Part shown: positions 16,816-61,939 of the stretch, piece by piece | Numbering within the stretch: position 1 is the stretch's first letter | Layout of the letters: each line of letters begins with the position of its first letter | Virus record (IMG/VR): IMGVR_UViG_3300035208_005635 | Span: 1 to 64,000 of that record | Direction: 5' to 3' (one strand) | From: a virus | Taxonomy: Duplodnaviria > Heunggongvirae > Uroviricota > Caudoviricetes | Length of the DNA stretch: 64,000 nucleotides | Made by a program: the position numbers and the translations under genes | The notes under the pieces: model-generated | The model's database searches: none | The model's input: only the letters and a program-made list of their open reading frames with translations | What the model was told of the DNA's origin: nothing

Positions 16816-16818
16816 AGG

Positions 16819-36953: not shown

Positions 36954-37463
36954 TTAAGTATTATTTAAAATTTTTAAAACTTCTTGACCTATACTATGCA
37001 AATCTATGCCTCTTTTTTTCCAGAGATTTGCATAGTATAATTTTCCACCTAGTTTTATGAATTGATTATCAACTATGTCGCATTCAAAAACTCCTTCTTT
37101 TTTCATTATGGGTTTAAATCTTTTACATTGGTCTGGTCTTGAATCTCTAGGTAAAATACAACCAAATTCTTCTAAATAAATACATTTCCCTCCCCAACTA
37201 GCATCAAAAATTTTAGACTTTTTTGTTTCTATCTCTACTAAAAATTTAGGGGCGATAGCTACAGGTCTAAGAAAATAAACAGGTGTGTCGCCTTCCCACC
37301 AGTCTATCGACCATTTTTTTGACAATAAGGCTTTCTTTACGGATTCTTGAATAGTCTCTGCTGGAAATAATTTGGCTATGTCGTCTGGTATGGCACACCC
37401 AGGCATTCTCTTACAGCAAGCTCCTCCGCATTTTCGGCAAATCTCTTCATCATAATAGAACAT
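36954..37463 (-). CDS. YkgJ/UPF0153-like CxxCxxCC domain protein (paralog 3 of 3)
   Basis: CRKCGGACCKRMPG motif. Confidence 0.45.
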   Translation of the reverse strand: MFYYDEEICRKCGGACCKRMPGCAIPDDIAKLFPAETIQESVKKALLSKKWSIDWWEGDTPVYFLRPVAIAPKFLVEIETKKSKIFDASWGGKCIYLEEFGCILPRDSRPDQCKRFKPIMKKEGVFECDIVDNQFIKLGGKLYYANLWKKRGIDLHSIGQEVLKILNNT

Positions 37464-45994: not shown

Positions 45995-46046
45995 TTTCGC
46001 TTAAAACGGCATAAATAAAAATAAAAAAATAATATTAAAAAACGGA

Positions 46047-46060
46047 ATTATCCACAGTCT
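46047..46060 (+). promoter_or_regulatory. isolated DnaA-box-like element ATTATCCACAGTCT (copy B)
   Basis: Second truncated copy, 65 bp downstream of copy A. Confidence 0.4.
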
Positions 46061-47020
46061 AATAATAAACCAATCAAAAATTTTAGCCTTTTCTGTCGCT
46101 TAACTCTACACAATTAAAAAACTGATTGGCGGCGTAAACTACACAAAAAGCAAAATCAAAAAAACGGAAATCAAAAACAACTAAAAGCTAATAAATATAA
46201 ATACTATTTCGCAGTTTTCTAACACCCGCCCGCATAACAAAAAATTGACAGAAAATAAAATAAGTAGCGATAAAAAGACAAATAAAACGGCAAGCGGGCT
46301 ATTTGAGAAGAGAGAAAAAAGTGGTGAGATTTTTAATTATTGTCAATTAAATATCTAAAAAACAAGATAAGCAAAAAACAAAATGAGAGCTAAAACATAA
46401 TGAGTAAAAAAAGAATATAATATAATAAACATAAACATTTCCGCAATAATAGAATTCTCAGAGAAATTGAAAGCATATAGAGAGATAAAAGTAAAAGAGC
46501 ATAAGAGAATGAGGGGGCGGATATTAGATGTAAAAAAACTGATTGATGTTAAATAAGCAAATAATAGGCAGATAAATGCCGATAAATATTAAACGATTGG
46601 CTAACATTCGCTTACGCATAGCATAGACAGATAGACATATAATAGGCAGGTAGACGAGCATTAGGCTAAGACAGGCTATTCTCGTAGCTTTGATATTAGC
46701 CTATAATACAGCCAAAAAGAACACTGCTAATAATAGCCACTAATAGCTAATATTAAACAATAGCCATTCTATTGCCTTTAACCGACCCACTAGAATGGCG
46801 TAGAATAAATAAATAACAATAAGTCCGCATAAGAGATATCTTTCAGAGATTCCCTCGTTGATAGCTAATATAAGGCATATATACCCCCCTATAAATATCT
46901 AAAGGGTTAATTTATAACAATATCAATGATAGCCTTTCAATTTCTCTAGAATTTTTAATAACCCGATTAGTTTTTTAATTTTAATAAAAAGCATATAATA
47001 TATGGCTAATATCAGATAAA

Positions 47021-48278: not shown

Positions 48279-48349
48279 GGTTTAGTAGCCAAGTGGAAAG
48301 GCAGGGGTCTGCAAAACCCCGAACATAGGTTCGATTCCTGTCTAGGCCT
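48279..48349 (+). tRNA. tRNA-Cys (anticodon GCA)
   Basis: Acceptor ggtttag/ctaggcc with two G-U pairs. Anticodon stem ggggt/acccc with loop ctGCAaa. T-arm atagg-ttcgatt-cctgt. Confidence 0.75.
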
Positions 48350-48359
48350 CAAAATATTT

Positions 48360-48791
48360 ATGAACCACAAATTTAAAAAAGCTAGAAAAGTAACGGAAAA
48401 AGAAAAAATATATTGCGGAGGAAAACCAGAAGCAATTATTCCAGAAAAACCCAAAGTTTCTGCAGGGATAAAAAAATATGAATGTAAAAGAGGAAAAGGA
48501 AAGCATATTTTTGAAATTGTTCCTAAAAATCAGAAAAAGCATAAATACGATAGTTGGATAGAATATAAATGTAAGTTTTGCGGTAAAGAAGAATACCGAA
48601 TAATATCAATGGGTTATAAAAAAACTTCTAATGGATATTATACAAAAAAAGAACCTAAAAAATGTCCTATTTGTGGAAAGGAAGTCATACCTGATTTAGA
48701 AAGTTTAGATAAAAAAGGATTGTGGGATGAGCATACTTTTAAATATAACTGTAATTGTCATAATAAAGATTTAAGAGTTTCGATAGGTTAG
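48360..48791 (+). CDS. hypothetical Cys-rich zinc-ribbon protein
   Basis: CKFCGKEEY ... CPICGKE ... CNCHNK. Confidence 0.4.
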   Translation: MNHKFKKARKVTEKEKIYCGGKPEAIIPEKPKVSAGIKKYECKRGKGKHIFEIVPKNQKKHKYDSWIEYKCKFCGKEEYRIISMGYKKTSNGYYTKKEPKKCPICGKEVIPDLESLDKKGLWDEHTFKYNCNCHNKDLRVSIG

Positions 48792-48865
48792 CCAATATAG
48801 CTCAACTGGCTAGAGCAATTCTCTTGTAAAGAAAAGGTTAGAGGTTCGAACCCTCTTATTGGCTC
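48792..48865 (+). tRNA. tRNA-Thr (anticodon TGT)
   Basis: Acceptor gccaata/tattggc. D-arm gctc..gagc. Anticodon loop ctTGTaa. T-arm agagg-ttcgaac-cctct. Confidence 0.8.
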
Positions 48866-48872
48866 TAAAAAG

Positions 48873-48943
48873 TAGGGATAGTTCAGTGGCAGAATACTCG
48901 CCTCCAAAGCGAAAGACAAGAGTTCGATTCTCTAGCCCTATGC
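48873..48943 (+). tRNA. tRNA-Trp (anticodon CCA)
   Basis: Acceptor gtaggga/gccctat. D-arm gttc..gaat. Anticodon stem ctcgc/gcgaa with loop ctCCAaa. T-arm aagag-ttcgatt-ctcta. Confidence 0.7.
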
Positions 48944-48971
48944 AAATTAATTTAATAATGAAATAAAAAAA

Positions 48972-49271
48972 ATGATAATTAATAAAAAGTATTTCACAAA
49001 AAGAGAATTAAAAAATTCTGAAGAGGCAATTATTCTAGCGAGAAAAATAATGGCTGGCGAGTCTGAGAATAGCACCTTAAAATATGACGCCTTAAGAAAG
49101 AAAATAAGAGAAATGGACTTAGATAAAGAGAGCAATCATTATATTTATTTAGTTGGTGAAAGAGTGTCTGATTTAATCATAGCTACGCATTGTCCTATTA
49201 ATGGAAATTTCGCTTTCAGGAAATGCACACAAGAAGAGTGGTTAGATTATTATCATAAATATGTAATGTAA
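48972..49271 (+). CDS. hypothetical protein
   Basis: 99 aa ORF. Confidence 0.4.
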   Translation: MIINKKYFTKRELKNSEEAIILARKIMAGESENSTLKYDALRKKIREMDLDKESNHYIYLVGERVSDLIIATHCPINGNFAFRKCTQEEWLDYYHKYVM

Positions 49272-49272
49272 T

Positions 49273-49344
49273 CGCGGGGTAGAGAAATTGGCATCTCGTC
49301 GGTCTCATAATCCGAAGGAGCGGGTTCGAATCCCGCCTCCGCAA
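49273..49344 (+). tRNA. initiator tRNA-fMet (anticodon CAT)
   Basis: CGCGGGGTAGAG...GTCGGTCTCATAATCCGAAGG...GGGTTCGAATCCCGCCTCCGCAA. C1xA72 mismatch. Near-identical in layout to the bacterial initiator tRNA. Confidence 0.9.
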
Positions 49345-49591
49345 CAAGGTATTTGCTTTTTGCAAATAGCACTTTGTCCGTTTCTTATTTGTTATCGTAA
49401 GAACAAATAAGTTAAGGAAGACAATTAATTCGTGGCAACCGAAGGGGATAATCAGGGCTTAAAAGCCTAGTAGCCCGTTGATTGAGGATTACGAGCCAAA
49501 TATATCAACGTATGACTAATAAATAATCTTTTTATTAGTTGCGAGACCTCTGCTGGAATAGGCTATGCCGCCGAAGTGCTATTCGCTAAAA

Positions 49592-49664
49592 GCGAATGTA
49601 ATATAACGGTTTAGTATGACAGTTTTCCAAACTGTTCGCGTGGGTTCGACTCCCACTATTCGCA
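49592..49664 (+). tRNA. tRNA-Gly (anticodon TCC)
   Basis: Acceptor gcgaatg/tattcgc. Anticodon stem acagt/actgt with loop ttTCCaa. T-arm gtggg-ttcgact-cccac. Confidence 0.8.
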
Positions 49665-49669
49665 CAAGA

Positions 49670-49753
49670 GCTACTGTGGTGGAATTGGCAGACACGCAAC
49701 ACTTAAAATGTTGTGGGGGAAACCCCATAGAGGTTCAACTCCTCTCAGTAGCA
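49670..49753 (+). tRNA. tRNA-Leu (anticodon TAA), type II with long variable arm
   Basis: Acceptor gctactg/cagtagc. Anticodon stem caaca/tgttg with loop ctTAAaa. Variable arm gggggaaacccca. T-arm agagg-ttcaact-cctct. Confidence 0.85.
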
Positions 49754-49758
49754 CAGAA

Positions 49759-49839
49759 GCTCCTGTAGAGAAACTGGTAAACTCGCCTGCCTTAGAAGCA
49801 GGAGCGAAAGCAGTCTGGGTTCGAATCCCAGCAGGAGCA
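49759..49839 (+). tRNA. tRNA-Leu (anticodon TAG), type II
   Basis: Acceptor gctcctg/caggagc. Anticodon stem cctgc/gcagg with loop ctTAGaa. T-arm ctggg-ttcgaat-cccag. Confidence 0.85.
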
Positions 49840-49844
49840 CGTAT

Positions 49845-49915
49845 TGGCTTGTAGCTCAACGGTAGAGCACTGAACTGATACTTCATAGACCTTGGTTCGA
49901 CTCCAAGTAAGCCTA
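49845..49915 (+). tRNA. tRNA-Ile (anticodon GAT)
   Basis: TA-GCTCAACGGTAGAGC D-arm. Anticodon loop ctGATac. T-arm cttgg-ttcgact-ccaag. The exact acceptor boundaries are uncertain (U1-U72 mismatch in my fold). Confidence 0.6.
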
Positions 49916-49971
49916 CTGAGATTAATATATAAAAATAAAGTGACTGACTGTTTCCTCTTGACAAGGAGGAA

Positions 49972-50361
49972 GTGAGAAGTATCCCACTTATTTCTTCTCT
50001 TGCCGAGAGGAAAGAGTTAAAAATTATGTTAAATGCCGAACAAGAAAAAAAGAAAAGAGAAATGCTAAATAAGATTGATGATATGGTTAGGAAGGGGCAA
50101 GTAGTTACTATTCAGGATGAATTTCCTGAAGATGCAGTTATTACTTGTATGGCTATTGAGGACGATGATTATGAAAAAATAAATGAATGGTGGGCTTTAG
50201 AAGCAAACAAGTCCTATCCGAGAGAAGTTTTCTGTGATGAGTGTAAAAGACAAGTAATGATGTCTAATTCGATGTGGTCAGCCTATCAGAAATCAGAAAA
50301 GAAACCAAAGGTAGTTTGCGGAAAATGTATCTTAAAAGTTATCCGCAGGGAAGGGTCTTGA
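49972..50361 (+). CDS. hypothetical zinc-ribbon protein (start possibly at the Met near 50027)
   Basis: CDECKRQ ... CGKC. Confidence 0.4.
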   Translation: MRSIPLISSLAERKELKIMLNAEQEKKKREMLNKIDDMVRKGQVVTIQDEFPEDAVITCMAIEDDDYEKINEWWALEANKSYPREVFCDECKRQVMMSNSMWSAYQKSEKKPKVVCGKCILKVIRREGS

Positions 50362-50415
50362 CTTTCCGTTTTTTATCTGCTATAATTATAATTAGAAAGT
50401 TTAAAATTATTTTAT

Positions 50416-50820
50416 TTGTATTATATGTATGAATTGAAACTAAAACATAAATTTTCGGCGGCTCATCATTTAGAAAATTATGATGGTGCTTGTGCTAATG
50501 TTCACGGTCATACTTGGTCTGTTCTTATATCTATAAAGACAAATACTTTGGTTAACGATATGGTTGTTGACTTTAAGGAGCTTAAGGCTTTAATAGATGA
50601 GAGATATGACCATAAAGATATAAATAAACAAGTTGTTTTTAATCCTACTGCTGAGCATATTTCGGGAGATATTTATAGTTTAATAAAAGATTATCTCAGA
50701 CCAAAGAACGGAGAGGAAGAAGTTCCGTATACAATTAAGGTAACTGTTTGGGAGGCAGACAATGCTAGTATTACTTATACCGGTGTTGACGCTATTAGTG
50801 AACGCCGGATTACAAATTAG
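50416..50820 (+). CDS. queD: 6-carboxy-5,6,7,8-tetrahydropterin synthase QueD
   Basis: 134 aa T-fold protein with the CANVHGHTW (Cx3HGH) zinc/catalytic motif typical of QueD/PTPS. Confidence 0.75.
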   Translation: MYYMYELKLKHKFSAAHHLENYDGACANVHGHTWSVLISIKTNTLVNDMVVDFKELKALIDERYDHKDINKQVVFNPTAEHISGDIYSLIKDYLRPKNGEEEVPYTIKVTVWEADNASITYTGVDAISERRITN

Positions 50821-50842
50821 AGTCCATTTAAGGACTCTTTTT
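50820..50842 (+). terminator. rho-independent terminator after queD
   Basis: gagtcc-attta-ggactc hairpin followed by ttttt. Confidence 0.6.
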
Positions 50843-50854
50843 ATATATAAAAAA

Positions 50855-50953
50855 ATGTCAACAAAAAAAAATTGCAAAGAGCAAAAAAGTAGTAGCGAAA
50901 AAAGCAGTTAAGAAAACTGCAAAAAAGCCTGCTACAAAAAAGAAGGCTAAGTA
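50855..50953 (+). CDS. tiny lysine-rich basic ORF (histone H1-like KKAVKKTAKKPATKKKAK)
   Basis: 32 aa, MSTKKNCKEQKVVAKKAVKKTAKKPATKKKAK. No SD. Below the ORF-track size cut-off. Confidence 0.2.
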
Positions 50954-51144
50954 AAGAGCAAGGAGGCGTTTATTCGCCTCTCTGGGAGTGGGTCATTATC
51001 CTCTATTTGCCAATTAGAAATTTAATTTCAGTTGGTCATAAGAGTAGGGCGTAAGAAGACCTCTCATAGCTACTCATTTTTATCTAATGACTTACGCCCA
51101 GAGATGCTAGAATATAGCTTGTCAAAGTCAAATGTCATAAGTCT

Positions 51145-51603
51145 ATGTTTAGTCCAAATTCTCCAACAGAGAAAAGTCAGCGTCCTACCCTTAGCAGTCC
51201 TTTGGGTAAAATATATTCAAAGGTTATTAGTATGAGAGAGGAGGAGAGAACCTATTTAAAAGGAAGAATTCTCACTCTAATAGATGGGGTTATCTCCGAT
51301 GTTATTCAGAGAAAAGCAGTAAAAGACCTAGTTAACACTATCTTTCGTGATAAAATATTCTTTTTTCAGGAATTAGGCCCTTTACTAGAAGGTTTTAAGA
51401 ATAAATATAGTCTTCATCATTTAGAGAAAAATGTTGCTAAATACTCAAAAGTATCAGATATTTCTGAAGAAGCAGGGTTTAAATTTCCTGCGGAAGAAAT
51501 AGGAGTATATCCTCACGAAGATTATTTTATTGACTGCTTATCTGTATTAAGCAGTGATTCAAGCAGTGATGGGGAAGAAAGTAAAGTAGAAGAAACAAAG
51601 TAA
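51145..51603 (+). CDS. hypothetical acidic protein (start possibly at the Met near 51232)
   Basis: 152 aa. Ser/Asp/Glu-rich C-terminus. Confidence 0.35.
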   Translation: MFSPNSPTEKSQRPTLSSPLGKIYSKVISMREEERTYLKGRILTLIDGVISDVIQRKAVKDLVNTIFRDKIFFFQELGPLLEGFKNKYSLHHLEKNVAKYSKVSDISEEAGFKFPAEEIGVYPHEDYFIDCLSVLSSDSSSDGEESKVEETK

Positions 51604-51754
51604 TTTAATAATTTAATTTATTTTGACTTTGACAAAGTGTATTTTAGATTTAAGGATTAAACCTGCGAAAGCAGTGTGCCGTTTCTTCCTACAAAAGGGG
51701 CTCACCTCCCTTCCTTTGTGGGTTTAGTTCTTAAAGTATTTAACCAAAATTTTT

Positions 51755-52486
51755 ATGCTAAAAGTTCACGAAGTCTTTAAGTCATTCCAGGGGGAGGGCG
51801 TGGACATTGGAATGCCGATGGTTTTTGTTAGGTTTGTTGGTTGTAATCTTGCTTGCAAATGGTGTGATACTTTATACGCTAGTCGTCCTAATTCTGAATA
51901 TAGAGAATATTTTGCTTTGCCTTTAATAGAAGAGATAGAGAAATTTGAAAATACTAGAGGAGTTACTTTAACAGGCGGGGAGCCGATGGTTCAGGATACC
52001 TTAGAACTAGACACGCTAATTTATGAATTAAAGGGAAAAGGACATTTTATAAATATAGAAACTAATGGAATTTTTCTTCCTGTTTTAACTAACGATAAGT
52101 TAGTAGATAGATTTAGTATTTCTCCTAAATTAAGCTCTTCAAAAAATAAAAATAGTCCTAATTTAGATACTTTATCTAAATACTTAAACGATTATCCTCA
52201 TAAGATATTCTTTAAATTTGTTATAAGTAATGAAGAAGAGCTTTTAGAGATGTTTGCTGTTTTGGAAAGCTTAAAACAAAAAGATATTAATATTTTGAAT
52301 ATACCTATAGTAGTTCAGCCTAACATAGACCCAAAAAAGGCAGAAAATTTTGTTGCTCAACAAGATGCTTTTAAAGACATATTAAAAGAAATATTATTTA
52401 AACACGCTTACTTATCTAGACAATATAATATTCGAGTTATTCCTCAATTCCATAAATATCTATGGGCAAACAAAAAAGGAGTTTAA
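51755..52486 (+). CDS. queE: 7-carboxy-7-deazaguanine synthase QueE (radical SAM)
   Basis: N-terminus LKVHEVFKSFQGEG (QueE signature). CNLACKWCDT radical-SAM CxxxCxxC. 243 aa. Confidence 0.8.
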   Translation: MLKVHEVFKSFQGEGVDIGMPMVFVRFVGCNLACKWCDTLYASRPNSEYREYFALPLIEEIEKFENTRGVTLTGGEPMVQDTLELDTLIYELKGKGHFINIETNGIFLPVLTNDKLVDRFSISPKLSSSKNKNSPNLDTLSKYLNDYPHKIFFKFVISNEEELLEMFAVLESLKQKDINILNIPIVVQPNIDPKKAENFVAQQDAFKDILKEILFKHAYLSRQYNIRVIPQFHKYLWANKKGV

Positions 52487-52599
52487 AAAGCATTCTATTA
52501 AATACAATAGCAAGAATTACTATATTTTCTTTGATTGCGATTATTTTCTATTTAATTACTAGCTATTTGAAGTTAAGGAGTTTCTTCTAATTATTATTT

Positions 52600-52812
52600 A
52601 TGACCTATGAAGAGTTTACTAAGAAAATTATTATTCTGCACACAACTAAGAAGGCATTTAACGGGGGGAGTTCTGTTCAGTCGCATATAATATTTAATAA
52701 AAAATTATTTTCTAAGAGTATTAGAAAATTTGTAAGTAAAACAGAATTAGAAATAGCCAAAAATTCTGCCATCGAAGACGCTTACCAAAAATATATTAAA
52801 GAGAAAAAATAA
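52600..52812 (+). CDS. hypothetical protein
   Basis: 70 aa ORF. Confidence 0.3.
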   Translation: MTYEEFTKKIIILHTTKKAFNGGSSVQSHIIFNKKLFSKSIRKFVSKTELEIAKNSAIEDAYQKYIKEKK

Positions 52813-52816
52813 AATT

Positions 52817-54520
52817 ATGTGGTTAAAGACTAAAGAAGAATTTGAAAAATCAGATTTTCCATTACTAATGGCGTTGGATACTGAAACTACAAGTTTAAAC
52901 CCTAGAGAAGCAGAAATGGAAGGAATAGGTTGGGGGGACGGAAAAAAGCAATATTATGTCGACTGGGCTTCCTGTGATTTTAAAGAGGACTTTAAAAAGA
53001 AATTATCCGAAGTCTTTAAAACTAATACCGTTATTTTCCACAATGCTAAGTTTGATATAAAAATTTTAAAGAGTGTTCTTAATATAGATTATCCAGAAAA
53101 AATTCACGATACGATGATAATGAGTTATTTATTGAATGAGAATAGAGGACACGGTTTGAAAGATTTGACTAAAACACTACTAAGAAGAAAGGTAGTCGAA
53201 TACGATGATGTAGCCAAAACTCCAAATTTATTCCAGACAGAGGAAATGATAAAAGACGATATGGCGAATTATTGTTGTGCTGATGTAAAAAATACTTTTG
53301 ATTTATATACTAAGTTTTCTCCGCTTATTCGGGAAGAAGAAATTTCTCTTTGCTATGAGAAGATAGAAATTCCGCTGATAAAAGTTTTAGCGGATATGGA
53401 GTTAAGAGGAGTAAAAATAAACTTAGAGTTATTACAGAATTTAGAAAATAAGGCAGAGGCAATTTTATTAGAAAAAGAATCTCTAATAAAAGAATTAGTA
53501 GGAAGTCAGAGTATGAACGTTCGTTCCAGTAAGCAATTAAGAGATTTAATCTTTGATAAACTCGGAGTTAAGCCGGTTATTTTTACACCTGGAGGAGAGC
53601 CTTCCACAGATAATGAATCTCTTAAATTATTAGCCAAGTCCAACAGTGCTGTTAAAGCCATTCTTGATTTCAGAGAATTTGATAAATTAAATGGGACTTA
53701 TTTAATAGGTTTAAAGGAAAAAGCAGAGAAAGGAATTTTATATACAGATTTTTTACAGCATAGAACTAGGTCAGGAAGATTAGCTAGTGCCAATCCTAAT
53801 TTACAGAATATTCCGGCTAGAAGCGATGAATTTAATATTAGAGATGCCTTTATACCTAGACCAGGGTATAAATTAATAGTTGCTGATTATAGTCAAATAG
53901 AATTACGTATAGTTGCTCATTATTCGCAAGAAGATTCAATGATGAAAACATTTAGAGAGGGCGGAGATATTCATCAATTAACCGCTGATATGGTTGGTTG
54001 CACTAGAAAGCACGCTAAGGCTATTAACTTCGGTTTAATTTATGGCCTAAGTGCAATGAGTTTAGCGAAAGACCTAGAGGTTTCTCAAGAGCAGGCAGAG
54101 ACATATATGAATACTTTTTTTTCTAAGTATTCTAAATTGAAACAGTATATAAATTCAGTCCAGACTCGAGGATTATTCGATGGCTATATAACCACCCTTT
54201 CAGGAAGACGCAGAAGATTTAAAGTTTATAGAGGAATGGATAGAGGGGATTTAGAATCTACAAAGAGAAAATTAATTAATACAAGAATACAAGGTGGGGC
54301 GGCAGACTTAATGAAAATAGCAATGGTGAGGATGAGCAAGGCTTTGAGAAAGTATGATGCCTATATGTTGATGCAGATTCACGATGAAATTGTAGTAGAA
54401 GCGAAAGAATCACAAATCGCGGAAATTAGTCAGGTTATAAAAGATTCGATGGAAAAAGCTGTTAGTTTCTCAATACCTATTCCAGTAGAATTAACTGTTG
54501 CAGACTGCTGGAAAAAATAA
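52817..54520 (+). CDS. polA: family-A DNA polymerase (Pol I-like) with 3'-5' proofreading exonuclease and no 5'-3' exonuclease domain
   Basis: Exo I LMALDTETT. Exo II FHNAKFDIKIL. Exo III YCCADV. Pol motif A VADYSQIELR. Motif B RKHAKAINFGLIYG. Motif C LMQIHDEIVVE. Confidence 0.85.
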   Translation: MWLKTKEEFEKSDFPLLMALDTETTSLNPREAEMEGIGWGDGKKQYYVDWASCDFKEDFKKKLSEVFKTNTVIFHNAKFDIKILKSVLNIDYPEKIHDTMIMSYLLNENRGHGLKDLTKTLLRRKVVEYDDVAKTPNLFQTEEMIKDDMANYCCADVKNTFDLYTKFSPLIREEEISLCYEKIEIPLIKVLADMELRGVKINLELLQNLENKAEAILLEKESLIKELVGSQSMNVRSSKQLRDLIFDKLGVKPVIFTPGGEPSTDNESLKLLAKSNSAVKAILDFREFDKLNGTYLIGLKEKAEKGILYTDFLQHRTRSGRLASANPNLQNIPARSDEFNIRDAFIPRPGYKLIVADYSQIELRIVAHYSQEDSMMKTFREGGDIHQLTADMVGCTRKHAKAINFGLIYGLSAMSLAKDLEVSQEQAETYMNTFFSKYSKLKQYINSVQTRGLFDGYITTLSGRRRRFKVYRGMDRGDLESTKRKLINTRIQGGAADLMKIAMVRMSKALRKYDAYMLMQIHDEIVVEAKESQIAEISQVIKDSMEKAVSFSIPIPVELTVADCWKK

Positions 54521-54544
54521 TTTAATTTTTAACTATAAAAATTT

Positions 54545-54847
54545 ATGTTTGAAGACAGAAAAGACGAAGATAAACAACCTTCCTGTGAAGTAGAACTAAA
54601 AGGTTCTATTGATAGAGAAATTAATAGACTAGAGAAGAATGTAAATTTTCTTTTGTCTAAAATTAACTTGCTAGAAAAAAGAGTAAAACCCGTAATAGCT
54701 AACAATCGAGAAAATTCTCAAAATGAGCAAAAAGAGGATGAAGAAACTCCAAATACCGAATTAGGAAAGACCATAAGAGAGATAAATCTAATTGTTGAAA
54801 ATTCTTTTGAGTTATTGTTGGATGTTATTAATGGTATTGAATTATAA
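54545..54847 (+). CDS. hypothetical coiled-coil protein
   Basis: 100 aa ORF. Confidence 0.35.
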   Translation: MFEDRKDEDKQPSCEVELKGSIDREINRLEKNVNFLLSKINLLEKRVKPVIANNRENSQNEQKEDEETPNTELGKTIREINLIVENSFELLLDVINGIEL

Positions 54848-54909
54848 CGAATAAAAAAAGTAGACATCTAAAAAGAATTGCTATTTCTCCCAGTTCTATT
54901 CTTCATTTA

Positions 54910-55104
54910 ATGCGGGGAGGAACTTTTCACATTACTCATAACGAAGTTTTACCGAAAGACATAAGGATAGTTAATGTGTATTTTTCTCCTGAAACTGATT
55001 GTTTTATCTTAGTTCTAGAAAGTGCAGAATTTCCGGTAATTTCTGAGGGAGAAATAATCCCTTTAATAGCAGACAATATAATAATTCAACAAGAACCTTA
55101 TTAA
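54910..55104 (+). CDS. hypothetical protein
   Basis: 64 aa ORF. Confidence 0.3.
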   Translation: MRGGTFHITHNEVLPKDIRIVNVYFSPETDCFILVLESAEFPVISEGEIIPLIADNIIIQQEPY

Positions 55105-55105
55105 T

Positions 55106-56896
55106 ATGATAAATATTACCCAAGAGCAATTAGAAAAAGATTCTTTGGAATTAGCAAAGAAAATTAAAAAATTTGGAACTAAGTTTGGATATGTAATAGG
55201 TATTTCAAGAGGGGGAATTATCCCAGCTCAAATAATTGCTAAAGAATTAGAAATTCCTTTCAAAAGTTCTGAGGAAATTAAATTCTTTGATTTTTCAAAG
55301 ATGCCCATTTCTTACCCTGGTGCTAGATTGCTTATTGTTGACGATTTAATTGATTCAGGGAAAACTCTGAAAGAGTTAGCTTTTAACCTTTCTTCTTTTA
55401 CGGTCAGAACGGCTGTTTTGTATAAGAAGAAAAATAAAAATCAAGCTATTTGTCCTAATTATTTTTTAAAGGAAGTTCCTAATCAATGGGTGTGTCTTCC
55501 TCACGAAGAAGGTTATGGAGTAGAAGACCATATTACTAGAATATTAGAATTTGTTGGAGAAGACCCAACAAGAGAAGGGTTAAAAGATACCCCTAGACGG
55601 GTCGCTAAGATGTATACTGAGATATTTAGAGGATACGACCCTACTCAGAAACCTAAGATAACTACTTTTCTTAACGGAAAGGATGGTATTACTTATAGTC
55701 AGATGATTATAGACGAAGGAACTTTTTATTCGCATTGCTTAACAGGAGATACGCAAATAAAAACTGTCAGAGGTATTTTCAGAATAAAGGATTTAGTAGG
55801 AAGAACAGAAGATGTCTTTTGTTATGATGAGAAGAATAAGAGATTTACAATTGCAAAAGCAAAAGACATAAGAATGACCTCTAAAAAAGCAGAGATTCTT
55901 AAGCTCACCACTGACTATGGGGCAATTTATGCAACAAGCGAGCATAAATTTTTGACCTACAACAGAGGTTGGGTAATGTTAAAAGACCTAAAACCAAAAG
56001 ATAGCTTAGTTGCTTTAAACTCTAGACTCTCAGGAAGTTACCTTACAACACAAGTATCTGATTCAAGAGATGGTTGGAGGAAAGAACATAATTTTATCTA
56101 TGAGGAGATGTCAGGAGAAAAATTAAAAAGTAAGGAGTTAGTTCATCATATTGATGGTGATAAAAGAAATAATATCTATGAGAATTTACAGAAGATGATA
56201 AATAAAGACCACACAGGGCTACACGCCAGAAAATATATGGCCTCCCTTTCTTCTGAACAAAAGTCAGAAATAGGCAAAAAAGCAAATTGGGGTTTTATTA
56301 GTTTAAGAGAAAAAGAGCCAGAGAAGTATAAATTAGTTAAAGAAAAAGCTAGAAATTCTTTAAAAAAGATGTATTCTAGCGAGAGGGGAATAGCTTTAAA
56401 GGAAAAGAAAAGTCGCGATACAAAAATTTGGTGGAAAAACAGAAAAGAAAAGAAGATGAAAAATCACCGAGTTGTAAAAGTTGAGTTTTCAGGATTTGAG
56501 CCTGTTTATAATATGGAAGTAGAGAAGTATCATAATTTTGTGGCTAATAGCCTCGTAGTCCATAATTGTGAGCATCATATGGTTCCATTCTTCGGAAAAT
56601 ACTATTTTGCGTATATACCAAATAAGACAATTATTGGTTTAAGTAAAGTTGCTCGAATAGTTGATTATTATTCTGCTAGATTGCAGGTTCAAGAAAGACT
56701 TGTCAGACAAATTGTAGATGAGATTGAGAAGTCCTGTAAGCCTCGTGGTATAGCATTGGTTATGAAGGCGGAGCATTTATGCAAAACAATGCGAGGTGTT
56801 AAAAAACAAGGTGTTATGACTGCTAGCGAGCTAAGAGGCTCTTTTGTTAAAGATTCTAAAGTTAGACAAGAATTTTTATCACTAATAAAAATATGA
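55106..56896 (+). CDS. folE: phosphoribosyltransferase-domain / GTP cyclohydrolase I (FolE) fusion, interrupted by an HNH intein
   Basis: Residues 1-135 form a type-I PRTase (VIGISRGGIIPA ... LLIVDDLIDSGKTL). Residues 140-210 plus the C-terminal 109 aa form FolE (EDPTREGLKDTPRRVAKMY ... FYSHC / CEHHMVPFFGKYYFAYIPN...). The intein sits exactly between YSH and CEHH. Confidence 0.75.
   Translation: MINITQEQLEKDSLELAKKIKKFGTKFGYVIGISRGGIIPAQIIAKELEIPFKSSEEIKFFDFSKMPISYPGARLLIVDDLIDSGKTLKELAFNLSSFTVRTAVLYKKKNKNQAICPNYFLKEVPNQWVCLPHEEGYGVEDHITRILEFVGEDPTREGLKDTPRRVAKMYTEIFRGYDPTQKPKITTFLNGKDGITYSQMIIDEGTFYSHCLTGDTQIKTVRGIFRIKDLVGRTEDVFCYDEKNKRFTIAKAKDIRMTSKKAEILKLTTDYGAIYATSEHKFLTYNRGWVMLKDLKPKDSLVALNSRLSGSYLTTQVSDSRDGWRKEHNFIYEEMSGEKLKSKELVHHIDGDKRNNIYENLQKMINKDHTGLHARKYMASLSSEQKSEIGKKANWGFISLREKEPEKYKLVKEKARNSLKKMYSSERGIALKEKKSRDTKIWWKNRKEKKMKNHRVVKVEFSGFEPVYNMEVEKYHNFVANSLVVHNCEHHMVPFFGKYYFAYIPNKTIIGLSKVARIVDYYSARLQVQERLVRQIVDEIEKSCKPRGIALVMKAEHLCKTMRGVKKQGVMTASELRGSFVKDSKVRQEFLSLIKI
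55736..56566 (+). mobile_element. intein (277 aa) with HNH homing endonuclease in FolE
   Basis: Begins CLTGDTQIKT. HNH region ELVHHIDGDKRNNIYENLQKMINKDHTGLH. Ends VVHN with a +1 Cys that is the catalytic CEHH cysteine. Confidence 0.75.
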
Positions 56897-57225
56897 CATC
56901 AATAATTGTAAAATCTAATTTTGTTGGTTTTCATTGTTGGCTTCGAGCACCAGATGAAGTTTCTTTTCTCAGAGAATATCACAGACATATTTTTTATGTA
57001 GAGTTAAAGATAGAGGTAAAGTCTTCAGATAGAGAATTAGAGTTTTTTACTGTTCAGAATAAATTAAAGGAAAGGATTGACACTGATTACAGAAATCAGT
57101 ATTTTCACAAGAGCTGTGAAATGATTGCTGAAGAATTGCGAAATAACTTTTTAGGTCTTTACCCGTCAAGAAATATCTCAGTTTTAGTTTCAGAGGATGG
57201 TGAGAACAGTGCCTTATGTGAATAA
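56893..57225 (+). CDS. hypothetical 110-aa protein in the deazaguanine island
   Basis: The size fits T-fold enzymes. No confident motif. Confidence 0.3.
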   Translation: MTSIIVKSNFVGFHCWLRAPDEVSFLREYHRHIFYVELKIEVKSSDRELEFFTVQNKLKERIDTDYRNQYFHKSCEMIAEELRNNFLGLYPSRNISVLVSEDGENSALCE

Positions 57226-57237
57226 TTTATATATTAT

Positions 57238-58590
57238 TTGTTCTTTACAAAGGAGAAGAGTATGAAAAAAGTAATACTTGATTTTGCTACAACAGAGGTG
57301 GTAAGAGGTAGTTTTGGATACGATTCTTACCTACTTTATTCCGCCTTAAAATCAAGAGGAGAAGAAGTTTCCCTAATAGAAGATGTTAGCCCTATGCAAA
57401 TTCACAAAGGTATAGGGGAAGAAAGTGACGAATGGATTATCCATTACTGGAGCTATCCGCAAAAGACCTTTATCGATTGGGCAATGAAAAAGCTTCGCGG
57501 TAAAAAAAGTTTCATCGGTTATAAGCCTTTAATTCGTAGGGATAATCTTCCCTTGTTAAAAGAATACGATAATAAGGCTATTTACGAAGGAATGAAGTAT
57601 TTGCCGGAAATACTGAAGGAGTTTAAGTATGGTCTTATGTCAGATTGCGACGAGCATATAAAGGGAAGTAAAATGGAAAAGGTAATGCCGTTGTTTCTCA
57701 GTTATGGATGCCCGAATGTTTGTGCCTTTTGTCCTATACCAGCAAATAGGAGAGATTCGACTCCGAGGAGAGTAGAACTAGATTTTGACGATTGTTCCAG
57801 AACTCTCCTATCTATGCGGGAAAAAGGTTACAATAGTATTCATTTTTGCGACGAGGATTTCTTTATGAATACAGATAGAGCAGAAACGATTATTTCCTTT
57901 CTGTCTAGTCTAGGCGGATTCAAATACATTGCCTTGGCTTCTGTTAGCTCTTTCTATAAAATTGTTGAAAGAGTAGGTATTCAAAAAATTCTCGATTCTG
58001 GATTACAGGTAGTAGAGCTTGGTTTAGAAACCAAAGACCTCGCTCTTCGCAAAAAAATGAAAAAAACAGGTTCAGAAGAACAGTTGCAGTATCTTTTAAA
58101 CATAAAGGAGTTAAAGGATAAAATATTTTTTCTTTCTGTAAGTCTGTTTCCAGGAGAAACTCTGGAAAGTGTTGAAAAGACCGGTGCTTTCTTAAAGCAA
58201 TACGGTCCTACAATAACTTCTCTTACTAGCAGAGTAAAGGCTAATTCTTCTGTCGGAGGTTTAGGTCAATTCTTTCAGCATTATACTGGATGTATTGACG
58301 AGGAAACATTAGCAAAGCAGGGAAAATTTTATGAAAAAATCTTTCCGACAAGATTAGAGCCGAGCTTTGCCCCATATAGCCTTTTGAAGCAAAAACCAAA
58401 ATGGAAGTATAATCAAGAAATTGCTTTGAATGAATTATTTTGGTGGAGGGATGTTTATAATCTCGACCCAATGAAACTCTTCTATACCAGGATAGACGGT
58501 TCTAAAACTGTCGACGAGATAGTGGGAAATAATACAGATATTTTGAAGCATATTTTACTTCTTGCTCGTCTCGGAAAGTTGGAAAGTTAA
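57238..58590 (+). CDS. radical SAM enzyme with N-terminal B12-binding-like domain (class B type)
   Basis: LFLSYGCPNVCAFCPI is CxxxCxxC. N-terminal Rossmann-like region (KKVILDFATTEVVRGSFGYDSYLLYSALK...). The start may be the Met at 57262. Confidence 0.6.
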   Translation: MFFTKEKSMKKVILDFATTEVVRGSFGYDSYLLYSALKSRGEEVSLIEDVSPMQIHKGIGEESDEWIIHYWSYPQKTFIDWAMKKLRGKKSFIGYKPLIRRDNLPLLKEYDNKAIYEGMKYLPEILKEFKYGLMSDCDEHIKGSKMEKVMPLFLSYGCPNVCAFCPIPANRRDSTPRRVELDFDDCSRTLLSMREKGYNSIHFCDEDFFMNTDRAETIISFLSSLGGFKYIALASVSSFYKIVERVGIQKILDSGLQVVELGLETKDLALRKKMKKTGSEEQLQYLLNIKELKDKIFFLSVSLFPGETLESVEKTGAFLKQYGPTITSLTSRVKANSSVGGLGQFFQHYTGCIDEETLAKQGKFYEKIFPTRLEPSFAPYSLLKQKPKWKYNQEIALNELFWWRDVYNLDPMKLFYTRIDGSKTVDEIVGNNTDILKHILLLARLGKLES

Positions 58591-58646
58591 GTGTTTAAAA
58601 ATATTCCTGAGGGTAGAAATCTATCCTCAGGAATCCTTACAACTGT

Positions 58647-59666
58647 ATGAGAATAATTAATATACCAATTGAACCTTTAGATAAACGCTATACAGAACAA
58701 TGGTATCGTTGGTTTCCTGAGGCTTTTGAAAAAAACAACATAAAATTCATTACTATAGACGGAGAAAAATTAACAGATAAAATAGAACACGGAAATGTTT
58801 TAGATGTCTATGGGACTCACTACTATAAGTTTTCTCAGTTACAGACTCTAATGAAAATGCTTAGAGAGGGAAAAATCAAAGACACAGATGTTCTATTATT
58901 TCACGATTTGTGGTTTCCTGGAATTGAGGCTTTGCAATATATCCGAGATATGGAAGGTAAGAAGTTTCAGATTTGCGGAATATTACACGCGGGAACTTGG
59001 GATAAAAATGATTTCACTTTTAGAAACGGAATGCGTCCTTGGGCAATGATGATAGAAAGAGGATGGTTAAGATTCTTTGATAAAGTGCTCTTAGGCTCTG
59101 AATATCACAAAGAGTTAATTGCTAGAGATTTTCCCGAGGCTGAAGATAGGTTATTTGTTACTGGACTGCCTTTTGATTATCGAGAAGTAGATTTTTGTAA
59201 AAAAGGCGGGAGAGAGAAGGAAAAAATAGTTGTTTTTAATCACCGCCTCGACCCAGAGAAGCAACCCGAGTTATTTGACAAATTAGAGAGAGAGCTAAAG
59301 GCACAGTTCCCTGATTGGAAGTTCATTAAAACAATAGAATGCACTAAGAATAAAAAAGAGTATTATTCTTTATTAGCGAGAAGTAGTGTCTGTGTCAGCC
59401 TCGCTCTTCAGGAAACATTTGGATATTCTACTCTTGAATCGTTAGCAAATCATTGCTTCACAGTTGTCCCGAAAAGATTAAGTTACGAAACAATGCCAAT
59501 ATACAAAGGTTGTTACTACGAGAATTACTCTGAAATGAAAGATTTAGTAAGAAAGTTTATGAAGGAATCACAGGATTGGATGCCTTATTACGAAAATCAA
59601 TTAAAAGAGTTTTTACCTGATAATATAGTTAAAAACATTAAAAATATTTTAGAAAAGAAAAACTAG
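58647..59666 (+). CDS. GT-B glycosyltransferase (GT1/GT4-like)
   Basis: C-terminal region KIVVFNHRLDPEKQPELF ... ETFGYSTLESL resembles the GT4 nucleotide-sugar binding motif. Confidence 0.5.
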   Translation: MRIINIPIEPLDKRYTEQWYRWFPEAFEKNNIKFITIDGEKLTDKIEHGNVLDVYGTHYYKFSQLQTLMKMLREGKIKDTDVLLFHDLWFPGIEALQYIRDMEGKKFQICGILHAGTWDKNDFTFRNGMRPWAMMIERGWLRFFDKVLLGSEYHKELIARDFPEAEDRLFVTGLPFDYREVDFCKKGGREKEKIVVFNHRLDPEKQPELFDKLERELKAQFPDWKFIKTIECTKNKKEYYSLLARSSVCVSLALQETFGYSTLESLANHCFTVVPKRLSYETMPIYKGCYYENYSEMKDLVRKFMKESQDWMPYYENQLKEFLPDNIVKNIKNILEKKN

Positions 59667-59689
59667 ACAAAAATCTCTTATAAAGATTC

Positions 59690-60583
59690 TTGCCTTACAG
59701 GTATTTTATGAATATATATTTAGCCGCAATGGAGCAGAAAGATAGTTTTGCTATTATTAAATCAGGAATTGTTCATAACGCTTTTCTTAGTTATTATTAT
59801 ATCTTTAGAAAAAAAAATTCTTATGATAGTAATCGAGAGATGTTTAGAAATAACATAAAAAGAATTATTATCGATTGCGGAGCTCATTCTTTCTTTGCAA
59901 ATATGAATAGTAATCTTTCCGCTTCGGTTAAAAAAAATAAGTATAAAGAAAAACAGTCCTTAGAAGAATATTTTAATCATTATATTAAATGGGTAGAAAA
60001 AAATTACGATTACTTTGACTATTTCATAGAGTTGGATGTTGGAGAAATTGTAGGGCAAGAAAAAGTTTTAGAGTGGCGTAATATTATTAAGGCTAAGGGT
60101 TTATATAAAAAATGTATTACAGTAATGCACCCTAGAGTTATGTCTTGGGAGGATTACTTAAAATTATTAGATGATTCAGAAAGTAAGTATATTGCTATAG
60201 AAAGCGATAGAAAATATAGAAAAAGACTTCCTTATAATAAATATTTAAAAGTCGCTTACGAAAAAGGAATAAGAGTTCACGGGTTTGCAATGACTAAAAC
60301 AGATGCTCTTGGAGTATATCCTTTTACCTCAGTTGATAGTTCTTCTTGGAAGGCAGGAGCACAATACGGGACAGGTAAAGCTCTTACTAAAAAGGGATTT
60401 GTAAATGTAAAATTTAAGGATAAAAAGAAATGTATGTCTTTGCCTAATACAATAGGGATTCATAGTGCCAATAAAGAAGAAAATAGAACAAGTCGTTATA
60501 TATTGGCAATTAAAGCTTATCAAAAAATGGCTTCTCATTTTACAGATTTGTGGAAAAAAAGAGGCATAACTTGGAAAGACTAA
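59690..60583 (+). CDS. candidate DpdA-like 7-deazaguanine DNA transglycosylase (TGT-like); speculative
   Basis: About 297 aa. RIIIDCGAHSFF is loosely DSGGFQ-like. Context: que genes upstream and a ParB-like (DpdB-like) gene immediately downstream. Confidence 0.3.
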   Translation: MPYRYFMNIYLAAMEQKDSFAIIKSGIVHNAFLSYYYIFRKKNSYDSNREMFRNNIKRIIIDCGAHSFFANMNSNLSASVKKNKYKEKQSLEEYFNHYIKWVEKNYDYFDYFIELDVGEIVGQEKVLEWRNIIKAKGLYKKCITVMHPRVMSWEDYLKLLDDSESKYIAIESDRKYRKRLPYNKYLKVAYEKGIRVHGFAMTKTDALGVYPFTSVDSSSWKAGAQYGTGKALTKKGFVNVKFKDKKKCMSLPNTIGIHSANKEENRTSRYILAIKAYQKMASHFTDLWKKRGITWKD

Positions 60584-61272
60584 TTAATAAAATATTTATG
60601 GAAAACAAAGTTAATACAAAAATAATTAAAATTTCTGAATTAAAACCTAATCCTTGGAATCCTAAGTTAAAGCCGGAAGACGACTTAGATGTTCAACAGC
60701 AATTTGATGAGGTTGTAAGGTCTGTAAAAAATTATGGTTTAGTCGAGCCTATAATGGTTAGAAGTGGAAACGAAAAAGGTGTTTTTGGTTATTATCAGAT
60801 TATTAATGGCTATCATAGATTTATGGCTTGTTCTCAATTAGGTTTTAAAGAAGTTGTTATTAATGATTTAGGAATTGTTAGTGATATTACTGCCAAAAAA
60901 TTAACTATTGTCACGGAAGAAGTAAAAATTCCTATAGACCAAGTTAAGTTAGGGCAATTAATTAAAGAAATGGCGACTACCGAAGATTTGGATAAATTAG
61001 CCGAAGGGTTGCCCTATAGTAAAGATTTACTAGAAAGTAAATTGCAACTATTAGATTTTGATTGGGAAGATATGGAACACGGTAAAGATAAACCAGACTC
61101 TACACCTAGCGATTCTCTTGATGCAGAAAATGACCATACTTTGATTCTTAGATTTTCTAGTGAAACAGATAAACTATTAGTAGAGGCTATGTTTGAAACA
61201 ATAACAAACGAACAAAAAGCCAAGAGTATTTCAGAGGGATTAGTTAATTTTGCAAAGACTTATGGAAAATAA
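60550..61272 (+). CDS. ParB-like nuclease-domain protein (DpdB-like)
   Basis: KISELKPNPWNPKL and GYHRFMAC fit ParB N-domain boxes. Acidic C-terminus. Confidence 0.55.
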   Translation: MEKKRHNLERLINKIFMENKVNTKIIKISELKPNPWNPKLKPEDDLDVQQQFDEVVRSVKNYGLVEPIMVRSGNEKGVFGYYQIINGYHRFMACSQLGFKEVVINDLGIVSDITAKKLTIVTEEVKIPIDQVKLGQLIKEMATTEDLDKLAEGLPYSKDLLESKLQLLDFDWEDMEHGKDKPDSTPSDSLDAENDHTLILRFSSETDKLLVEAMFETITNEQKAKSISEGLVNFAKTYGK

Positions 61273-61939
61273 AGTTGAGAGTGTTGAATTAAAAACTGTA
61301 TCTCCGAGAATTATAAACTGGGAAGATTTAAAAGTGAAATTTTTTCTTAGCCCTATTCGAGGAGCTAGGAAATATCTAAGAACTGAGAAGGTATTTTCAG
61401 ACGATGAATTAGCTTCTGGTTATATTAACGGTAAAATACTTAATTGGGAAATAGAGAAGAAAGAATGGGAACAGCAAGCATTAGAAGTAACAATGCACAA
61501 TTTGCGAGAAACCAAGGCTATTCAGATGAAAAATTTTCTTATAGAAGAAGAAAAAATAGTTTCCCAGTTAATGAATATGACAAAGATTGCTATGAACAAT
61601 CTTGTAGTCAAAACAAAAATAAAAGACCCTAATAATCCAGGAAAGACAATAGACGCTGTAAAAGTTACAGATACAAAAGGTTTCAAGCAAATTACTGATT
61701 CTACTATTAATATTCTAAAATATAGTCGTGATAGATTGGGTATTCCTTTTGAGAAGGAAGAAGAAGGATTAGGAAATGCTGTTACTTTCAACTTTGATTT
61801 AATTAATTTAGATGAGTTTGAACCAGACGAAGTATTCAAATTTTTTAAAGATAAAACTAATGAACGACAGAATAGTCCAAAACAAATTGAGACAAATGAT
61901 ACAGATGGAATTTCAGAATCTTCTGAATCATCGAAGTAG
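61250..61939 (+). CDS. hypothetical protein, candidate small terminase subunit by position
   Basis: 229 aa ORF immediately upstream of, and overlapping, the TerL ORF. Confidence 0.3.
   Translation: MQRLMENKVESVELKTVSPRIINWEDLKVKFFLSPIRGARKYLRTEKVFSDDELASGYINGKILNWEIEKKEWEQQALEVTMHNLRETKAIQMKNFLIEEEKIVSQLMNMTKIAMNNLVVKTKIKDPNNPGKTIDAVKVTDTKGFKQITDSTINILKYSRDRLGIPFEKEEEGLGNAVTFNFDLINLDEFEPDEVFKFFKDKTNERQNSPKQIETNDTDGISESSESSK

Follow-up and report, generated by a model that had tools for sequence, protein, structure and literature searches.

Which base does a tailed phage write into its DNA when genes for 7-deazaguanine synthesis lie beside those for a transglycosylase, a glycosyltransferase and a radical S-adenosylmethionine (SAM) enzyme? 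The question is raised by a gene island at 50.4-61.3 kb of the window analyzed here, the first 64 kb of IMG/VR virus record IMGVR_UViG_3300035208_005635 (Caudoviricetes); this phage is known only as a metagenome contig. An earlier note, made from the sequence alone, had suggested that the phage DNA carries either a carboxy-deazaguanine or a further-derivatised, perhaps glycosylated, deazaguanine that had not been described. We predict that the module builds 7-deazaguanine from guanosine triphosphate (GTP), writes it into the phage DNA, glycosylates it and, in this phage, tailors it further, a reading to which we give somewhat better than even odds. We see about an even chance that the base made by the cassette belongs to a chemical class new to DNA. 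Coordinates of all features are in Table 1.

Genes for the scaffold base

The genome encodes FolE, QueD and QueE, each with its catalytic motif (CEHH, CxxxHGH and CxxxCxxC, respectively). Hidden Markov model (HMM), profile and fold searches support these assignments and that of the DpdA transglycosylase, and with them the proposal of a 7-deazaguanine DNA-modification island. All seven open reading frames (ORFs) named in the earlier note are in the ORF list, on the + strand and with their coordinates unchanged, but that inventory overlooked the dpdL gene at 56893-57225 and the composite nature of the FolE ORF.

Residues 1-140 of the FolE ORF form a phosphoribosyltransferase (PRT) domain that is nearest to xanthine/guanine PRTs and has an intact phosphoribosyl pyrophosphate (PRPP) loop. 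Further along, an intein interrupts FolE at the catalytic Cys of its CEHH zinc motif. The predicted spliced product, a PRT::FolE fusion of 319 amino acids (aa), matches the intein-free fusions of 301-307 aa in the related contigs L015 and L016. FolE would be active only after intein splicing, so the whole deazaguanine pathway would depend on protein splicing. Inteins also occur in FolE of L017 and L018, the terminase region of L020 and L021, QueE of L014 (PT-HINT), and a radical SAM homologue (P0025). PRTs of the xanthine/guanine type are recurrently fused to FolE or located inside DpdL-type cassettes (L015, L016, L017, L021, L035/L036, L044, L057, and L070), and a PRT is a separate gene in L005 (phage BUCT-ZZ01) and L073 (phage PAC2).

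The absence of QueC, claimed earlier, holds: the PP-loop motif SGGxDS occurs in none of the six frames of the window. Pfam gives no QueC match in the island or in ORFs of at least 110 aa between 4.8 and 50.4 kb (the 1,755-aa ORF at 22743-28010 excepted), and tblastn finds QueC in 0 of 55 related loci, a database that does not include the window itself. Lacking QueC, the phage is predicted not to make preQ0. Also not found in the same Pfam scans of the window are a thymidylate-synthase-like hydroxymethylase, an NDP-sugar (nucleoside diphosphate sugar) enzyme, a nucleotide kinase, MazG/dGTPase, and a reductase. Without the hydroxymethylase there would be no alternative hydroxymethyl-pyrimidine target for glycosylation there.

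The small gene after folE encodes LREYHRHIF (56968-56994) in place of the QueD motif CxxxHGH. This is an exact copy of LxxxHRHxF, the signature that Cui, Hutinet et al. used to define DpdL (NAR 2023, PMC10516641). An alignment of 58 DpdL homologues retains the signature in 57-58 of them, and L26, H30, R31, H32, F34, the third zinc histidine H14, and E76/E101 are kept in 56-58. A tblastn search of 50,697 phage records with the window protein returned 29 records, among them the published DpdL phages phiST, phi13:1, phi19:2, and ACP17; it is 34% identical to phiST DpdL (CGPG_00067). The DNA of phiST carries 7-deazaguanine (dDG), which replaces all G, and 7-carboxy-7-deazaguanine (CDG) was undetected (PMC10516641). 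The presence of DpdL makes 7-deazaguanine, not CDG, the likely scaffold base, and the window protein is a putative CDG decarboxylase that would give 7-deazaguanine. The carboxy half of the earlier proposal is outdated, as both CDG in DNA (dCDG) and dDG were reported from phage or virus DNA in 2023 (PMC10516641) and DpdL favors the decarboxylated base. The other half, a further-derivatised and possibly glycosylated base, is strengthened by the gene linkage described below.

Predicted insertion and tailoring enzymes and their shared neighborhood

The ORF at 59690-60583, put forward earlier as a TGT-like candidate, is of the DpdA type. It matches the "queuine tRNA-ribosyltransferase" PHROG phrog_887 (E 4.7e-28), and a profile of its family aligns with phage 9g DpdA in hhalign with 97.5% probability (E 7e-12, 192 columns). 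Blocks common to both types are (I/L)DSGAxS and KVHGF...YP(F/W)YS(V/C)DSSSW. Residues D56, D110, H191-G192, and D210 do not vary among 42 family members and follow the order of Asp95, Asp130, His181-Gly182, and Asp256, which are essential in Salmonella DpdA; the comparison is of order rather than of superposed structures. The kinship to TGT comes from PHROG and hhalign but not from Pfam TGT, which has no match to the window protein or the 42 family members even at E<=1. A sequence-profile search of the PDB with the DpdA alignment gave no match, and Foldseek with the DpdA model (predicted local distance difference test, pLDDT, 90.9) found generic TIM barrels only. Clustered at 50% identity, the family counts 239 representatives with E<=1e-30, a number that rises to 2141 at E<=1e-10.

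Identity with DpdA3 (phiST, CP220 type) was rejected: there is no tblastn match, the hhalign probability is 1%, and the PHROGs differ (phrog_20335 vs phrog_887). With no detectable kinship to phiST DpdA3 and a 9g-like profile, we assign the window transglycosylase to the DpdA/TGT superfamily as a DpdA1-like enzyme whose cassette partner is DpdL. The analogy drawn earlier with published systems holds for the enzyme type, but the protein has more in common with DpdA1 of phage 9g than with bacterial DpdA. Relatives of 470-580 aa were considered as DpdA-ParB fusions, which was rejected; their extensions contain no Pfam domain.

Adjacent to dpdA, the ORF at 60550-61272 encodes a ParB-domain protein, as proposed. 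Its NCBIfam matches are of the Noc and ParB/Spo0J types. The pairing had been compared with DpdA/DpdB; ParB is indeed a regular neighbor of DpdA, but it is not DpdB at the sequence level, with no PADLOC match to DpdB and a GYHRFMA box rather than the DGQQR NTPase motif. That it persistently lies 3′ of DpdA hints at a helper function, DNA-loading or NTP-driven, of the kind demonstrated for DpdB in bacterial Dpd. A second ParB_N protein (288 aa, GERRWRA box, Pfam 2e-16) is encoded far from the island at 10414-11280 (-).

The glycosyltransferase family alignment keeps R200 and K205 (HRLDxEKQP) and the EX7E block (Q255-E256...E264), a combination that we take as the hallmark of retaining GT4 NDP-sugar transferases. 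The earlier assignment of 58647-59666 to GT-B glycosyltransferases is supported by these motifs and by the precomputed annotation of the same protein, which lists PF00534; the protein also matches Glyco_transf_4 (3e-4), and homologues score up to 42 bits against Glycos_transf_1, above the cut-off. A profile search of the PDB returns GT4 enzymes only, as weak matches (WbaZ-1 at 3e-5, PglH, and GlgM). The family comprises at least 727 clusters at 90% identity, nearly all unannotated. In locus L016, genes similar to RmlA, RmlB, and RmlD for NDP-sugars directly follow DpdA-ParB-ParB, and in PAC2/PA5oct a gene annotated "epimerase domain" and a PRT lie between DpdL and QueE. Both contexts are consistent with real sugar transfer.

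The radical SAM enzyme has invariant C151, C155, and C158 (CxxxCxxC). Its AlphaFold2 model (pLDDT 91.9) matches CysS, AprD4, TsrM, and TokK over both domains in Foldseek (E 5e-11 to 1e-7). AprD4 is the best match by TM-score (query TM-score 0.60), and a profile search of the PDB also ranks it first (7e-11). AprD4 is a 1,2-diol dehydratase rather than a methylase and is not known to bind cobalamin. Calling 57238-58590 a B12-type radical SAM enzyme is right as to architecture and the Radical_SAM match, but there is no Pfam B12-binding match; the model leaves cobalamin use putative, in a methylase or a dehydratase-like enzyme. More than 110 homologues (33-47% identity) were found, all unannotated and mostly on phage-sized metagenome contigs, and the four homologue contexts sampled all contain the same cassette. 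Single-protein scans of IMG/VR with the radical SAM enzyme and with DpdA gave no close relatives; an alignment-based scan with DpdA did yield loci. Local tblastn recovers the order QueD-QueE-(PRT)FolE-DpdL-radical SAM-glycosyltransferase-DpdA in L012-L015, at 25-45% identity. A different enzyme, a radical SAM/SPASM protein of ~324 aa that is unrelated to the window type, occupies the slot between DpdL and the glycosyltransferase in L016 (7932-8906) and likewise in L018, L019, L040, L041, L057, L060, L067, L069, and L071.

The alignment-based scan with the DpdA family provided a census of 55 IMG/VR loci; by tblastn, the census undercounts divergent genes, most of all QueD, PRT, and ParB. The glycosyltransferase is near DpdA in 51/54 loci with enough flank and DpdL is present in 43/45, QueE in 30/34, and FolE in 32/34, with ParB just 3′ of DpdA in 39/54. 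PRT was found in 6/34 loci (tblastn), the B12-type radical SAM enzyme in 5/45, and the SPASM type in 7/45. The core is QueD/QueE/FolE-DpdL-glycosyltransferase-DpdA-ParB, and a radical SAM enzyme is an optional addition that is present in the window. As one type or the other occurs in about a quarter of related cassettes, it is accessory.

Isolated phages show the same linkage. With the glycosyltransferase as a tblastn query, the 50,697 phage records contain 18 strong matches (E<=1e-21); all are from DpdL carriers, with the glycosyltransferase beside DpdL. These include Xanthomonas phages X1 and BUDD, Acidovorax phage ACP17, Burkholderia phage BCSR5, Sinorhizobium phage Phosso, Synechococcus phage BUCT-ZZ01, and eleven PA5oct-like Pseudomonas jumbo phages. 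They are unrelated to the window phage and include T4-like and jumbo phages. So specific a linkage in phages this distant would be difficult to account for unless the genes share a pathway. The extra tailoring enzymes noted earlier are module members, not chance neighbors, though the radical SAM enzyme is not part of the core; the window glycosyltransferase is a core partner of DpdL and DpdA and a predicted NDP-sugar transferase. DpdL phages with no glycosyltransferase are the phiST group and MA9V-3 (DpdA3 type) and Faecalibacterium phage Roos (ParB-DpdL-DpdA); the enzyme is an add-on whose occurrence follows that of DpdL.

Some phages without the window-type DpdA have phrog_10773 proteins of 400-424 aa beside the glycosyltransferase and DpdL: L008 7701-8975 (ACP17, 424 aa), L005 7694-8944 (BUCT-ZZ01, 416 aa), and L010 11341-12543 (400 aa). 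In the PA5oct-like phages, a 540-aa protein takes this position (L073 5379-7001, PAC2). Either protein may be the insertion enzyme where the window-type DpdA is absent; hhalign, run with single sequences only, found no similarity between them and the DpdA family. The DNA of PA5oct resists G-containing restriction enzymes, and its modified G is unidentified (PMC12191111).

Proposed pathway and its alternatives

By family assignment, GTP would be converted to CDG by FolE (after splicing), QueD, and QueE. DpdL, by homology to its phiST counterpart, would strip the CDG carboxyl to leave 7-deazaguanine. Fold, profile similarity and conserved active-site residues suggest that the DpdA1-like enzyme swaps guanine in DNA for deazaguanine, and the ParB-type neighbor may aid it on DNA, by analogy with DpdB. 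The GT4 enzyme, to judge from its conserved gene neighborhood, would move a sugar from an NDP-sugar onto the deazaguanine, most likely after insertion of the base into DNA, as T4 glucosyltransferases do on hydroxymethylcytosine. Action on the inserted base is favored because TGT-type pockets bury the Watson-Crick and N2 face and because phage DNA glycosyltransferases act post-replicatively. The link to the sugar could be an N-glycoside, for which huimycin is a precedent, or, conceivably, a C-glycoside at the electron-rich pyrrole carbon. More speculatively, the radical SAM enzyme may modify either the base or its sugar further, with C-methylation and deoxygenation as examples. Each base exchange frees one guanine and FolE consumes GTP, so the PRT fused to FolE is most simply explained as a salvage loop; it most likely recycles released guanine to GMP/GTP, the pathway substrate, although this too is speculative. 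The modified base would shield phage DNA from host nucleases. That DpdL, the glycosyltransferase, DpdA, and ParB make a sugar-bearing 7-deazaguanine in DNA, with a radical SAM tailoring enzyme added in this phage, is a proposal that we hold to be evenly balanced.

Several points weigh against this pathway. DpdL activity has never been reconstituted, phiST and ACP17 included, and heterologous expression failed (PMC10516641). Phage 9g DpdA works without a ParB-type partner (PMC6884629), and the window ParB lacks a DpdB signature. The window glycosyltransferase scores 26.3 bits against Glycos_transf_1, just under the cut-off of 26.4. About 35 kb of the 98.8-kb source contig lie outside the window. 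The phage could also make plain dDG, as in phiST, while the glycosyltransferase and the radical SAM enzyme are merely co-transcribed and act off DNA on envelope sugars, phage proteins, or a small molecule. phiST obtains dDG from FolE, QueD, QueE, DpdL, and a DpdA, and Roos combines ParB, DpdL, and DpdA, both without the glycosyltransferase, which is therefore not needed to install the base. Nor does 7-deazaguanine offer an obvious hydroxyl acceptor, so that the enzyme would have to form an N- or C-glycoside or use some other target; its generic name in the collection is "involved in cell wall biosynthesis". We consider plain dDG unlikely, given that the enzyme stands beside DpdL and DpdA in 51 of 54 metagenomic loci and that its 18 strong matches among phage genomes are without exception DpdL carriers, unrelated T4-like and jumbo phages among them.

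The PRT could signal a nucleotide-level, pre-replicative route, which also counts against post-replicative glycosylation: it would make a deazaguanine or CDG ribonucleotide that is reduced, phosphorylated and incorporated by PolA, with DpdA in a secondary or repair-like role and the glycosyltransferase perhaps acting on the nucleotide. PRT recurs in the cassettes, as a FolE fusion (window, L015, L016, and others) or as a gene of its own (BUCT-ZZ01 and PAC2); tubercidin biosynthesis draws on CDG, a PRT (TubE), and a decarboxylase; the phage polymerase gene sits in the island; and phiST-type clusters carry MazG and kinase-like genes. The scanned window ORFs, however, contain no nucleotide kinase, MazG/dGTPase, or reductase, and PRT was counted in few loci (the 6/34 by tblastn), whereas DpdA defines the locus set. 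The field has concluded that all known deazaguanine DNA marks are post-replicative, and the fusion of PRT with FolE is explained no less well by GTP supply than by a nucleotide route, which we regard as quite improbable. More improbable still is that DpdA inserts CDG itself, so that the DNA carries dCDG, possibly esterified by the glycosyltransferase. The lack of QueC in the window would suit it, and dCDG occurs in nature, in STSV-2. Enzymes of the GT1/GT4 type can in principle form acyl glycosides, which would allow such an ester. Yet DpdL is present and intact with an invariant signature, phiST with the same FolE/QueD/QueE/DpdL set had no detected CDG and dDG for all G, and the dCDG of STSV-2 arises in another gene context, DpdA plus ArcS2.

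To our knowledge, eight 7-deazaguanine derivatives are known in DNA, none of them with a sugar. If the pathway of insertion and glycosylation is right, the product would be, as far as we know, the first case of a genome that carries a glycosylated purine analogue, joined by an N- or C-link rather than an O-link to a hydroxymethyl group, and a new chemical class of DNA hypermodification. It would explain why heterologous ACP17 DpdL and DpdA failed to give dDG, as partners were missing, and it may identify the "modified G" of the PA5oct-like jumbo phages, which are END nuclease targets and candidates for therapy. The two alternative radical SAM enzymes would define sub-variants of the mark and, with a DNA- or deazapurine-directed GT4 enzyme, would be new enzymes for DNA labelling. 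The cassette is widespread, and cultured phages carry the DpdL-glycosyltransferase pair, including the therapeutic-candidate Pseudomonas jumbo phage PA5oct. Even if only dDG were made, the loci would represent a large lineage that combines a DpdA1-like enzyme with ParB and DpdL and stands apart from the DpdA3 type of phiST.

Surroundings of the island and comparison with known systems

Table 1. Features of the island, with positions in the window
Feature	Coordinates	Strand	Evidence
Promoter-like site, TTGACT-17-TGnTATAAT	50358..50386	+	11/12; just 5′ of queD; weak evidence
QueD, 6-carboxy-tetrahydropterin synthase	50416..50820	+	Pfam PTPS E 5.7e-26; CxxxHGH = CANVHGH
QueE, CDG synthase, radical SAM enzyme	51755..52486	+	phrog_2076 E 4e-47; NCBIfam QueE 2e-31; CxxxCxxC
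FolE ORF (GTP cyclohydrolase I)	55106..56896	+	GTP_cyclohydroI E 5e-58; Pribosyltran; Intein_splicing + HNH_3
Type I PRT domain, FolE N-terminus	55106..55525	+	PRK09177 4.5e-15; PRPP loop LLIVDDLIDSGKT
FolE N-extein	55526..55735	+	family searches, motif inspection
Intein, 277 aa, Cys1 ... His-Asn / Cys+1, HNH homing endonuclease	55736..56566	+	residues 211-487
FolE C-extein	56567..56896	+	family searches, motif inspection
DpdL, QueD paralogue, proposed CDG decarboxylase, 110 aa	56893..57225	+	LREYHRHIF; phrog_17812
Radical SAM enzyme, N-terminal B12-domain-type Rossmann fold, class-B architecture	57259..58590 (or TTG 57238)	+	Radical_SAM E 2.7e-12
GT4-type (GT-B) glycosyltransferase	58647..59666	+	Glycos_transf_1, EX7E motif, R200/K205 diphosphate-binding motif
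DpdA, TGT-fold DNA-guanine transglycosylase, DpdA1-like	59708..60583 (or TTG 59690)	+	phrog_887, hhalign
ParB_N-domain protein, GxxRxxA box = GYHRFMA	60550..61272	+	ParB_N E 2e-9; phrog_723 3.8e-25

The genes from FolE through ParB abut or overlap (FolE/DpdL by 4 nt, also DpdA/ParB and ParB/next ORF), and the block is operon-like. The likely ATG starts of the radical SAM enzyme (57259) and DpdA (59708) lie slightly downstream of the listed ORF starts and agree with the precomputed gene calls. The phage polymerase gene (PolA) is embedded within the island. The promoter-like site 5′ of queD is the top-scoring sigma-70-like site in 46-64 kb, but the total count of such sites in that region is no higher than in shuffled sequence. 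The island lies inside a + strand block that starts near a strand switch at 46-47 kb. From 6 to 46 kb the genes run on the - strand and GC skew is negative, and from 47 kb onward they run on the + strand and skew is positive, making ~46000-47000 a possible divergent transcription point and replication origin. The window has eleven tRNA genes (16817-17047, 29113-29184, and 48279-49916), eight of them at 48.3-49.9 kb directly 5′ of the island (Cys, Tyr, Trp, Met, Gly, Leu x2, and Ile).

A megablast search with the island found no match in the 50,697 phage genomes, and the phage terminase shares ~30% identity with its counterparts in siphophages of Vibrio and Stenotrophomonas. A 229-aa ORF (61250-61939, +) lies between the genes for ParB and the large terminase, in the same place as in the closest relatives (L017-L021 and L044); it has no family match and may be the small terminase subunit. 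The window also encodes a GroEL/Cpn60-type chaperonin (12487-14103, -; Pfam Cpn60_TCP1 8e-62) and a free-standing UDG-superfamily protein (20595-21269, -). In the cassette-bearing relatives L014 (14512-17196) and L015 (8120-10162), the family A DNA polymerase itself carries a fused UDG domain. A MoxR-type AAA+ ATPase (bpMoxR, 6e-26; 34010-35236, -) adjoins a 578-aa protein (32251-33987, -) with an acidic, Gly/Glu/Gln-rich low-complexity middle and a C-terminus that is vWA-like by eye, with no vWA match in Pfam at 1e-4. Three Cys-rich ORFs (11430-12467, 20080-20607, and 36954-37463, all -) have CxxCxxCC-like motifs (CGICCHN, CKFECCTV, and CGGACCKR) and recall YkgJ-type Fe-S/zinc proteins, with no Pfam match at E<=1e-4.

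Among known systems, the dDG system of Cellulophaga phage phiST (PMC10516641) resembles the window in having FolE, QueD, QueE, and DpdL with LxxxHRHxF, in lacking QueC, and in placing the deazaguanine genes beside replication genes. It differs in having DpdA3, MazG, and an ATPase and no glycosyltransferase, tailoring radical SAM enzyme, PRT, or ParB. Enterobacteria phage 9g (Hutinet et al., Nat Commun 2019, PMC6884629) has a homologous DpdA and a cluster beside the DNA polymerase gene, but its dG+ system uses QueC/Gat-QueC to make preQ0 and then archaeosine, and it has no DpdL, glycosyltransferase, tailoring radical SAM enzyme, or ParB neighbor. Compared with bacterial Dpd (Salmonella Montevideo, PMC10164549), the window has no PADLOC match to DpdB or DpdA, no DpdC, and none of the DpdD-K restriction genes. 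The bacterial substrate is preQ0, unlike that of the window, and the pairing of ParB with DpdA echoes DpdA/DpdB.

The T4 alpha- and beta-glucosyltransferases and other phage DNA glycosylation systems are phage GT-B enzymes that add sugar from an NDP-sugar to a non-canonical DNA base as anti-restriction (PMC13216743). The acceptor there is the hydroxyl of 5-hydroxymethylcytosine, whereas no hydroxymethyl-pyrimidine pathway was found in the scanned window ORFs, and the window enzyme is of the GT4 type with no detected similarity to those of T4. HuiG, a GT4-type enzyme of huimycin/dapiramicin tailoring, glycosylates a 7-deazapurine with UDP-GlcNAc, a precedent that makes glycosylation of a deazapurine chemically feasible. 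It belongs to actinomycete secondary metabolism and acts on free O-methylated preQ0, with no DNA or DpdA involved, and is likened to the window enzyme by architecture only. The class B radical SAM enzymes (CysS, TsrM, TokK, and the cobalamin-free AprD4) have the two-domain architecture and CxxxCxxC motif in common with the window enzyme at 12-16% identity; the window family is separate.

In the literature searched, DpdL is mentioned in one paper only, and neither a glycosyltransferase nor a further radical SAM enzyme is connected with deazaguanine cassettes of phages. The scaffold pathway is of the phiST type and the transglycosylase is 9g-like, and the association of a GT4 enzyme with DpdL and DpdA, with an optional radical SAM enzyme, is new as far as the searchable literature goes.

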